A stretch of DNA of 8,169 nucleotides from a virus (taxonomy: Monodnaviria > Loebvirae > Hofneiviricota > Faserviricetes > Tubulavirales > Inoviridae). The DNA lies in IMG/VR virus record IMGVR_UViG_2541047720_000001, positions 1 to 8,169 of that record. One strand, 5' to 3'. The notes below the pieces were generated by a model. That model was not told the DNA's origin, made no database searches, and saw nothing but the letters and a program-made list of their open reading frames with translations. The position numbers and the translations under genes were made by a program. Within the stretch, counting starts at the first letter, position 1, and each line of letters starts with the position of its first letter. This document shows positions 5,683 to 6,387 of this stretch, in pieces.

Positions 5683-6387
5683 GTGAAATCAGATATGGAT
5701 GTTCACGGTATCATTGATAATCAAAAAAAAGAAATTGAGCGTTTATATGAAAAATATACTGAGTCATTAGAGTGTTACCTATCTGGTAAATGTGATTTTG
5801 ATACCGTGAATTCATGTGGAGACAGTTTTTTCGGCTATTTAGAACACTGCGCTGCACATAACAGAACAGTAGATGAATTAAATAATACTCAATGGAATCA
5901 ATGGCTTGCAGAAACATGCATTGATGTTCTTCACCTTATCTTAGCTCATTACAAAAAATATAGAGAGGTAATGAATGATAATAGTATTAAACCAAGCTCC
6001 ACTGCTTTTGCTTCAATGCAAAGGATAGTAAAAGCCCATGACAAACGTTCTGCAAAAGAAATAAGGAATCTTTTCGTTAATGAAGATATGCCAGTATATG
6101 GATTTGACAATAAAGGAAAAGAAAAATTGACAAAAGCACACGAGAGAATAGCGGCATTTAGCTTTGGCATTTTACTTGTTATTCTTTTTATAATAATCGC
6201 AATATTTATACCTAATCCAACGAACTTTCAATACACTTTCTTTCGAATAATTCTTTCAGCAGCAGTTGCTGGGGTAGTCTCATTTATACCCGGGTTTATA
6301 GAAGTCAAAATATCAAACTGGGTAAGAGCAGGTGGAGCATTAGCTGTATTTGTGATTGTCTATTACGTGGCTCCCGCAGCATTATGA
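5683..6387 (+). CDS. Hypothetical membrane-anchored protein of unknown function, 234 aa from GTG at 5683 (230 aa from ATG at 5695); prophage cargo gene
   Basis: The only long plus-strand ORF. N-terminal ~160 aa are hydrophilic with several Cys and His. Two clear C-terminal hydrophobic helices (AAFSFGILLVILFIIIAIFI and FFRIILSAAVAGVVSFIPGFI) plus a hydrophobic tail (AGGALAVFVIVYYVAPAAL). Visibly more AT-rich than the neighbouring phage and host genes. Followed by a strong hairpin terminator. No strong Shine-Dalgarno, so the start codon is uncertain. Confidence 0.75.
   Translation: MKSDMDVHGIIDNQKKEIERLYEKYTESLECYLSGKCDFDTVNSCGDSFFGYLEHCAAHNRTVDELNNTQWNQWLAETCIDVLHLILAHYKKYREVMNDNSIKPSSTAFASMQRIVKAHDKRSAKEIRNLFVNEDMPVYGFDNKGKEKLTKAHERIAAFSFGILLVILFIIIAIFIPNPTNFQYTFFRIILSAAVAGVVSFIPGFIEVKISNWVRAGGALAVFVIVYYVAPAAL

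Follow-up and report, generated by a model that had tools for sequence, protein, structure and literature searches.

An orphaned membrane-protein gene in a defective dif-integrated filamentous prophage is one half of a mobile gene pair with a possible role in conflict between genetic elements

The DNA described here, 8,169 nucleotides of the Inoviridae record IMGVR_UViG_2541047720_000001 (the window), contains a filamentous prophage and, within it, a gene for a membrane protein that is transcribed opposite to all of the phage genes. The open reading frame (ORF) is unbroken over 5683-6387 on the plus strand and the phage genes recognized by Pfam lie on the minus strand, as an original prediction made from the bare sequence had noted. 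That prediction gave the product as 234 amino acids (aa), the length that follows from an alternative GTG start at 5683. The gene stands but the length probably does not. Translation most likely starts at the ATG at 5695, because RefSeq calls this start in E. coli F11 and Combat2C1 and the homologues all begin at the equivalent Met. The gene then spans 5695-6387 and encodes 230 aa plus the stop, a protein identical to WP_000382466.1. What the original prediction missed is that this gene is one half of a conserved pair. The other half, a small gene that will be called the partner, has been deleted from the window together with the native promoter region; its stop codon (TAG, 5681-5683) survives upstream of the ATG.

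The membrane gene is, to judge from its relatives, a genuine gene and not a chance ORF, because it has homologues in 57 clusters, matches phrog_5814 with an E-value of 5e-144 in PHROGs, and encodes a protein that is 100% identical across three E. coli loci, intact prophages among them. It is also more AT-rich than its surroundings, as originally stated. Its GC content is 0.343 (0.242 at third codon positions) versus 0.409 for the phage genes at 552-5566 and 0.478 for hipA (0.502 at third positions). A strong hairpin flanked by A- and U-tracts lies 28 nt past the stop codon on the plus strand, at 6415-6454 (RNA fold -30 kcal/mol, z -7.1). It was missed by a simple terminator scan and is likely the terminator of the cargo operon to which the membrane gene belongs.

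The minus-strand genes form an Ff-like inovirus set, with hipA and hipB to their right (Pfam). They encode a secretin (gIV, 552-1799), Zot (gI, 1714-2808), a gVI-like protein with DUF5455 (2809-3153), an attachment protein with G3P_pilus-bind and Phage_Coat_A domains (gIII, 3150-4574), the gVIII coat protein (4477-4719) and gV (4923-5240). These are followed by a gene II remnant encoding the C-terminal, gX-like part of 104 aa (5252-5566; G2P_X_C, E 4e-30). The canonical 28-bp E. coli dif sequence is found on the minus strand at 135-162 without a mismatch, and forms one boundary of the prophage. At the other end, beyond the membrane gene, is a degenerate dif-like site (6457-6484, minus strand) in which the XerC arm is intact and 8 of the 28 positions mismatch dif. 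It falls in a 104-bp element-end repeat (6383-6486) that is 97% identical to positions 1478-1580 of the F11 locus (L001), where the same repeat closes a neighbouring cargo set. Because of the inovirus gene set and these two flanking sites the window is a dif-integrated prophage of the CUS-1/YpfPhi type, which bears out the original assignment. The membrane gene lies inside the element so bounded, as does the cargo of integrative mobile elements exploiting Xer (IMEX), and the same layout is common to the F11, Combat2C1, Proteus and Pectobacterium loci.

The deletions were defined against the intact prophage of E. coli F11 by blastn, with a three-way alignment for the junction. The window corresponds to the F11 prophage apart from two deletions, of 488 bp and 1,494 bp. 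The larger one removed the N-terminal two thirds of gII (1,053 bp when intact in F11), the intergenic region between gII and the repressor, the gene for a 60-aa rstR-like repressor, a 46-aa ORF, and the first two thirds of the 91-aa partner ORF (WP_000948310.1). Its junction, at 5584-5596 with a 13-bp overlap or microhomology, fuses the middle of gII with the final third of the partner gene. The membrane gene is the last gene of a plus-strand operon, brought beside the gX remnant because the deletion juxtaposed them. The original statement that it occupies the gene II position is literally true of this window, but the gene has not replaced gene II. The smaller deletion lies in the secretin gene, which is chimeric, with a junction near 751; about 100 C-terminal codons of gIV were removed, and what was left is fused to the beginning of a 102-aa ORF that lay downstream. 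The prophage is doubly defective because of the gII deletion and the gIV truncation.

What remains of the partner gene on the plus strand is its last 28 codons and stop (ICNGLNTSKASSLLAKIQSQSNNTQQKR*) at 5597-5683, following an in-frame TAA. Within this remnant a TTG could start a mini-ORF of 24 codons (5609-5683, plus strand; MNTSKASSLLAKIQSQSNNTQQKR), which keeps exactly the conserved C-terminal motif of the partner, the core of the natural 46-aa mini-paralogue described below.

Since the deletion took the divergent promoter region as well as the partner, what is left here is an orphan, an intact 230-aa gene that is probably poorly expressed or silent. For this one copy it is rather probable that the gene is a functionless relic, the decaying cargo of a dead prophage. 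The truncated partner and the two prophage deletions, one in gIV and one running from gII through the partner gene, fit that explanation. A simple promoter scan also found no sigma-70-like promoter upstream of the gene in the window, which is weak evidence either way. The protein is nevertheless still 100% identical to the copies in intact prophages, so that decay has not begun and the deletion may be recent. In the 22 complete E. coli genomes with the membrane gene, no match extends upstream of position 18 of the query, and none of them therefore shows the junction seen in the window. The relic explanation moreover describes this copy and not the function of the family.

The predicted protein has two parts. 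An N-terminal, all-helical domain of residues 1-147 (5695-6135), predicted to be cytoplasmic, was delineated with an AlphaFold2 model and profile searches. It is followed by a C-terminal module of three transmembrane (TM) helices, residues 148-230 (6136-6384), recognized by hydropathy. Residues 1-140 have no hydrophobic segment and three such segments are centred at 157-170, 189-195 and 219-221. The AlphaFold2 model, built with 27 homologues, has a mean predicted local distance difference test (pLDDT) score of 79.6, exceeds 90 over residues 11-130, and places the helices of the N-domain at 3-29, 35-58, 66-93 and 106-129. The distribution of K and R residues around the TM segments, five before the first, none in the uncharged first loop (PNPTNFQY) and two in the second loop, suggests a topology with the N-terminus inside and the C-terminus outside. 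There is no signal peptide or secreted domain. The soluble domain and TM helices of the original prediction are thus recovered. Its emphasis on Cys and His residues was overstated; the protein does hold five Cys and seven His, but across the family only one of each, C75 and H85, is invariant. The invariant residues of the N-domain are W67, A72, E73, C75, L79, H85, P100, A106, Q109, R110, P133, Y135, G136 and F137, and those conserved in the 3-TM module are P175, Q179, R184, P199-G200-F201, E203 and A212-G213-G214-A215.

The two parts have separate distributions. The N-domain, searched against 1.84 billion representatives, was found in 76 clusters and is N-terminal in all of them. In about three quarters of the clusters the 3-TM module follows directly; the exceptions fuse the N-domain to an astacin-like metallopeptidase (P0308) or to a PGAP1/DUF676-like alpha/beta hydrolase (P0336). 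The last 83 residues of the protein are in turn 50-60% identical to segments in proteins whose extensions, at either terminus, are unrelated and include ankyrin and DUF4019 domains. A profile of the 3-TM module matched at least 474 clusters, many of them stand-alone metagenome proteins of 88-158 aa, and some of the stand-alone genes are followed by an overlapping gene of 230-254 aa with no assigned function. To judge from these matches the 3-TM module is a portable, widespread orphan family without annotation. Stand-alone versions of 127 aa, on contigs from soil and other metagenomes (L016 5001-6145; L020 5001-6073), end in repeats of the N-x-I-N-G-N-T-G type. The 230-254 aa gene that follows them overlaps by 4 bp and encodes a protein with a signal-like N-terminus, a related 'QTINDNRGVITITCSG' motif and no Pfam family.

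The partner proteins are 80-131 aa long and have in common a C-terminal helix with the motif G-[LV]-[DN]-[NT]-S-[DK]-x-x-x-L-L. A partner profile found 176 clusters of proteins of 80-96 aa. In Enterobacterales there is in addition a mini-paralogue of 42-57 aa with the same motif. The 46-aa ORF that precedes the partner is such a mini-paralogue, as its sequence indicates, because it carries the partner's C-terminal motif (GLDTSKAKRLLEKAQ versus GLNTSKASSLLAKIQ). Several members of the partner family (P0058, P0059, P0061, P0062) are labelled 'S-(hydroxymethyl)glutathione dehydrogenase' by NCBI. Proteins of 85-91 aa that lack a dehydrogenase domain are implausible bearers of this name, which looks like a mis-annotation passed from record to record.

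Neither protein could be placed in a known family, as had been predicted for the membrane protein. The membrane protein, the partner and the mini-paralogue gave no match above noise in Pfam, NCBIfam or PADLOC, PHROGs puts all three in families of unassigned function, and profile searches of the PDB with the membrane-protein and partner families gave no match. The anti-phage library was PADLOC-DB v2 (2023), which includes the CBASS and Pycsar TM effectors and the PDC, HEC and PD-T4/Lambda sets, and no known or candidate system in it contains either protein. The partners and four further homologues likewise had no PADLOC match. Matches to ENOD93, EscR, RecX and the P2 response-regulator-binding domain fell far below the cut-offs and were rejected as noise, and a match of the membrane protein to Csx27 (PADLOC, E 0.0056, 15 bits), lying partly over the TM helices, was rejected as a match of TM composition. 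Structure comparison of the membrane protein returned generic helical bundles only, with nothing at E<=0.001 in a Foldseek search of BFVD, and the partner model (pLDDT 72.6) had no credible match. Literature searches by accession and PHROG identifier found nothing. The pair is thus undescribed within the defence catalogues up to PADLOC v2 (2023) and the literature examined, the integron-cassette assays of 2025 lying outside this comparison.

The partner and the membrane protein are syntenic in 11 independent contexts, the two genes usually overlapping or a few bases apart. The spacing is 11 nt in F11 and 1 nt in Proteus, and the genes overlap in Vibrio, Aeromonas, Cronobacter and Salmonella. 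Apart from the F11 and Combat2C1 inoviruses, the pair is found in a Pectobacterium inovirus, where genes of 67, 46, 91 and 232 aa follow one another, and, next to the integrase, in a Microbulbifer prophage whose annotation omits the partner ORF. In the superintegron of V. parahaemolyticus, which has 14 attC-like repeats, the pair (6001-7064), flanked by the repeats at 5801-5950 and 7056-7177, fills exactly one attC-bounded cassette, an arrangement that the window does not have. In H. influenzae it forms an islet between guaB and guaA, and in an Aeromonas island it comes with two tandem partner paralogues. Plasmid copies were found in Cronobacter, in Salmonella (near a TacAT pair and an Xer site) and on Rep3 plasmids, where the pair is directly beside VapBC and a type II operon (SAVED, SMODS, Cap2, JAB) of the cyclic-oligonucleotide-based antiphage signalling system (CBASS). 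A Proteus mirabilis island between dif and a dif-like site (L003 1441-8815) holds the pair with a transposase and PDC-S73, a TIR-STAND candidate in PADLOC. In another island (L027 5501-10463), a site whose Xer arms are perfect lies 2 kb upstream of the pair, and AbiJ 850 bp downstream. In two further contexts, this window and a P. aeruginosa plasmid, the membrane gene is kept and the partner lost; on the plasmid, which has Hachiman beside the gene, a copy of insertion sequence IS1394 replaces the partner position.

Judged by gene order, the pair is a compact, self-contained cassette that moves as a unit through the variable cargo slots of diverse mobile elements. Recognized or candidate defence genes (CBASS, Hachiman, AbiJ, PDC-S73) lie within 3 kb of it in four contexts. 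The Proteus and L027 dif-adjacent islands have the pair, a transposase and a defence gene and no inovirus structural genes. These arrangements suggest that dif is a hotspot for defence cargo in several Enterobacterales.

The only relative of the membrane protein in the phage database is 28% identical and comes from a P2 isolate (OU784750), where its gene follows a gene of 85 aa. The 85-aa protein is homologous to the 91-aa partner of F11 (BLASTP E 8e-5), with a common W-x-P-T-x-x-Q-L motif. This P2 pair is inserted between the genes for tail-fibre assembly (phrog_136) and the tail sheath (phrog_23), a variable locus of P2; dif-like sites flanking the copy were sought and none was found. This position, with gene G (tail-fibre assembly) on one side and gene FI (sheath) on the other, is the Z/fun locus. 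The P2 gene fun(Z) blocks T5, and the likeness of the homologue pair to fun(Z), old and tin is one of position only. Two variable loci of P2 hold anti-phage genes; the gpQ-gpA locus was catalogued and the G-FI position was not (Rousset et al. 2022, PMC9122126). Defence or exclusion, which the original prediction had named among the candidate functions, is a reasonable lead given homologues in the Z/fun slot and beside CBASS, Hachiman, AbiJ and the TIR-STAND candidate.

One form of that lead is a superinfection-exclusion (Sie) or entry-blocking membrane protein that acts, for example, on the Tol/pilus or DNA-entry machinery without killing the cell. The gene is carried by temperate elements, on the repressor strand, in the manner of a lysogenic-conversion gene, a homologue pair occupies the Z/fun slot, and the 50-60% identity of the TM module across phyla might be explained if the module binds a host membrane machine that is itself conserved. 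The pair is also found, however, in integron cassettes, plasmids and non-phage islands, and the conserved cytoplasmic partner and the fusions of the N-domain to enzymes are foreign to the known single-protein Sie factors. Exclusion of this simple kind is improbable.

Carriage on plasmids and in integrons, and the close coupling of a larger gene to a small one upstream of it, are likewise properties of type II toxin-antitoxin (TA) modules, and the bicistronic layout of the pair agrees with them. The membrane protein could then be a toxin and the partner its antitoxin, an addiction module that stabilizes the carrier (inovirus or IMEX, plasmid, integron array) rather than stopping phages. The small gene comes first, the plasmid copies have other TA pairs (VapBC, TacAT) as neighbours, and TA cassettes are common in superintegrons (Darracq et al. 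preprint). The number of partner copies varies, with two paralogues in Aeromonas and the mini-paralogue in Enterobacterales. On the other hand, the putative toxin would be a 230-aa membrane protein with a regulatory domain, and the partner has no recognizable antitoxin or DNA-binding fold. A single N-domain that is found with interchangeable C-termini, peptidase or hydrolase, is rather what one expects of sensor-effector proteins. The membrane gene is intact even though its partner is deleted (window) or replaced by an insertion sequence (P. aeruginosa plasmid), a weak objection as the upstream promoter region is also gone. A TA module is on balance an unlikely explanation, though TA and abortive-infection roles can coexist.

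That the gene is accessory and not part of the phage core, as originally proposed, was examined among 5,426 complete E. coli genomes. The gI-gVI segment is found in 55 of them. It matches at 99% or more in 22, and the membrane gene is also found in 22; the two lists overlap in every strain shown. All 26 related genomes in which the segment matches at 95-99% lack the gene. Its product has no Pfam match to the core inovirus set (gII/gX, gV, gVII/IX, gVIII, gIII, gVI, gI, gIV), and a core gene would be present in all close prophages. Other genes occupy its place in UM146, a K1-type strain. The prophage there is 98% identical over gI-gVI and has an identical repressor, followed by genes of 140 aa (phrog_4174), 91 aa and 159 aa (phrog_6723) (L022 11958-13163). 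The 91-aa product is annotated as an 'ECs_2282 family putative zinc-binding protein' and has a weak PADLOC match to PDC-S64 (E 4e-7). Combat2C1 carries two tandem prophages that differ in cargo, with the alternative set at L026 281-1486, and F11 keeps the remnant of a second set (L001 64-1482) that ends in the same 104-bp dif-like repeat. The E. coli sets can be written as 46+91+230 aa (F11, and the window) versus 140+91(Zn)+159 aa (UM146), on backbones 98-100% identical over gI-gVI. Because near-identical backbones carry different gene sets there, the membrane gene is accessory cargo, and the slot beside the dif-like end, as these comparisons indicate, is a swappable cargo position with at least three alternative contents.

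Similar slots are present in the published relatives. The attL-adjacent ORFs of CUS-1 (orf1, orf1a) and YpfPhi (YPO2271/YPO2272) are mutually unrelated, have no homologues and are of unknown function (PMC4266046). Like the membrane gene they lie beyond the rstR-like repressor, on the opposite strand and beside the dif-like end. Near-identical backbones in E. coli bear at least two alternative sets, and no identity with orf1 or orf1a is claimed; equation of the gene with the published CUS-1 orf1 was withdrawn, as the cargo of UM146 is a different one. An ORF of 77 aa with two CxxC pairs (201-434, minus strand; phrog_5435, function not annotated), which lies at the dif-proximal end of the prophage, probably corresponds to one of the attR-adjacent ORFs, the homologues of YPO2280a/YPO2281 in the YpfPhi review.

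The original prediction had raised a virulence function for the gene and its possible identity with puvA. The identity fails. puvA encodes a virion protein that binds the host receptor (PMC4266046), a role that belongs here to the G3P-domain gene at 3150-4574, a gIII-like attachment gene, and the membrane protein has no G3P or coat domains. The gene could still act in host interaction as a virulence accessory of the dif prophages associated with extraintestinal pathogenic E. coli (ExPEC). Most of the listed carriers among the 22 genomes (F11, Combat2C1 and 85.0412, for example) are human isolates, several of them urinary, with HB37 coming from chicken, and CUS-1 and YpfPhi add modestly to fitness in vivo (PMC4266046). 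Homologues in marine and soil bacteria, plant pathogens, integrons and a P2 phage form a distribution unfit for a function in mammalian hosts, and a predicted cytoplasmic N-domain with neither signal peptide nor secreted domain also speaks against it. Such a function is very improbable. Within gIII itself, the Gly/Ser-rich linker at 3688-3786 of the window has internal GGGESGGGS repeats (blastn self-matches); the gene is annotated as frameshifted in F11 and varies in length among strains.

The reading that we favour, to which we give an even chance, is that the pair is a new conflict cassette made of a sensor or regulator and a membrane effector, probably abortive-infection-like in its action. 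In this cassette one or two small soluble partners are followed by an inner-membrane protein of about 230 aa. The N-domain would be a regulatory or adaptor module on which the conserved helix of the partner docks, and the partner would be either a sensor and trigger or a brake. The 3-TM module would be the effector, oligomerizing into a channel or otherwise damaging the inner membrane, with the conserved R184 and E203 in or beside the bilayer. Acting in conflict between elements, the cassette would most likely cause abortive infection or exclude incoming phage. Somewhat more tentatively, short of an even chance, the partner or partners and the 230-aa protein may constitute an undescribed family of abortive-infection systems directed against phages or mobile elements.

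Such action would resemble that of RexAB or of the CBASS/Pycsar TM effectors, without membership in either family. RexA is a protein of about 280 aa and RexB a four-TM protein of about 144 aa with no large soluble domain. RexAB and Sucellos (SclAB) are, like the pair, two-gene cassettes borne by prophages or integrons, with one cytoplasmic component and one multi-pass component in the inner membrane. The partners here are however only 80-131 aa, and the membrane protein has its own 147-aa helical domain and three TM helices. Neither protein matched Rex-type models in Pfam or PADLOC. By analogy the pair may work like RexAB, without being a member of that family. Sucellos, a single integron cassette, kills infected cells (Darracq et al. 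preprint); it was rejected as the same system on architecture. The TM proteins of CBASS (Cap14/Cap15), Pycsar (PycTM), retrons and defence-associated reverse transcriptases are short, portable TM effectors with varied sensing domains, and the 3-TM module likewise occurs alone or N- or C-terminal to unrelated domains. Unlike CBASS and Pycsar, the cassette has no nucleotide-second-messenger synthase or receptor domain and no match to a PADLOC hidden Markov model, and the CBASS operon beside the pair on Rep3 plasmids has its own SAVED effector.

Several points weigh against the conflict cassette. First, the pair matched no validated defence protein, the marginal Csx27 match (E 0.006) is the sole PADLOC signal for the membrane protein, and structure searches gave only generic helical bundles. 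Second, pLDDT is only 40-75 over the TM helices (147-171, 177-195, 208-225), so that pore formation is purely conjectural. Third, the association with defence genes comes from about a dozen loci picked by hand and is not an enrichment statistic, and defence neighbours are missing from some contexts, such as the stand-alone 3-TM genes of soil metagenomes and the guaBA islet of H. influenzae. Finally, the window and the P. aeruginosa plasmid both have an intact membrane gene whose partner is gone. Unless the gene is silent in both places, such orphans agree neither with a strict need for two components nor with the partner being strictly an antitoxin.

For this window the message is the more modest one, a dead prophage in which the gene is an orphaned remnant. 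If the conflict cassette is real, its effector would be a widespread 3-TM module, highly conserved across phyla, absent from Pfam and reused with many sensor domains. The cassette would travel whole among Xer-dependent dif elements, P2 hotspots, integron cassettes and plasmid defence islands, and would link these four routes of gene shuffling. If its role is in defence or exclusion, three protein families that lack annotation would together make up an additional compact system of about 1 kb, and a large orphan 3-TM family would gain a function. The dif filamentous prophages of ExPEC would then be carriers of interchangeable defence cargo, with at least three cargo sets on a single backbone, and the 'unknown ORFs' at the attL end of CUS-1/YpfPhi prophages would mark a swappable slot for defence cargo rather than virulence genes.

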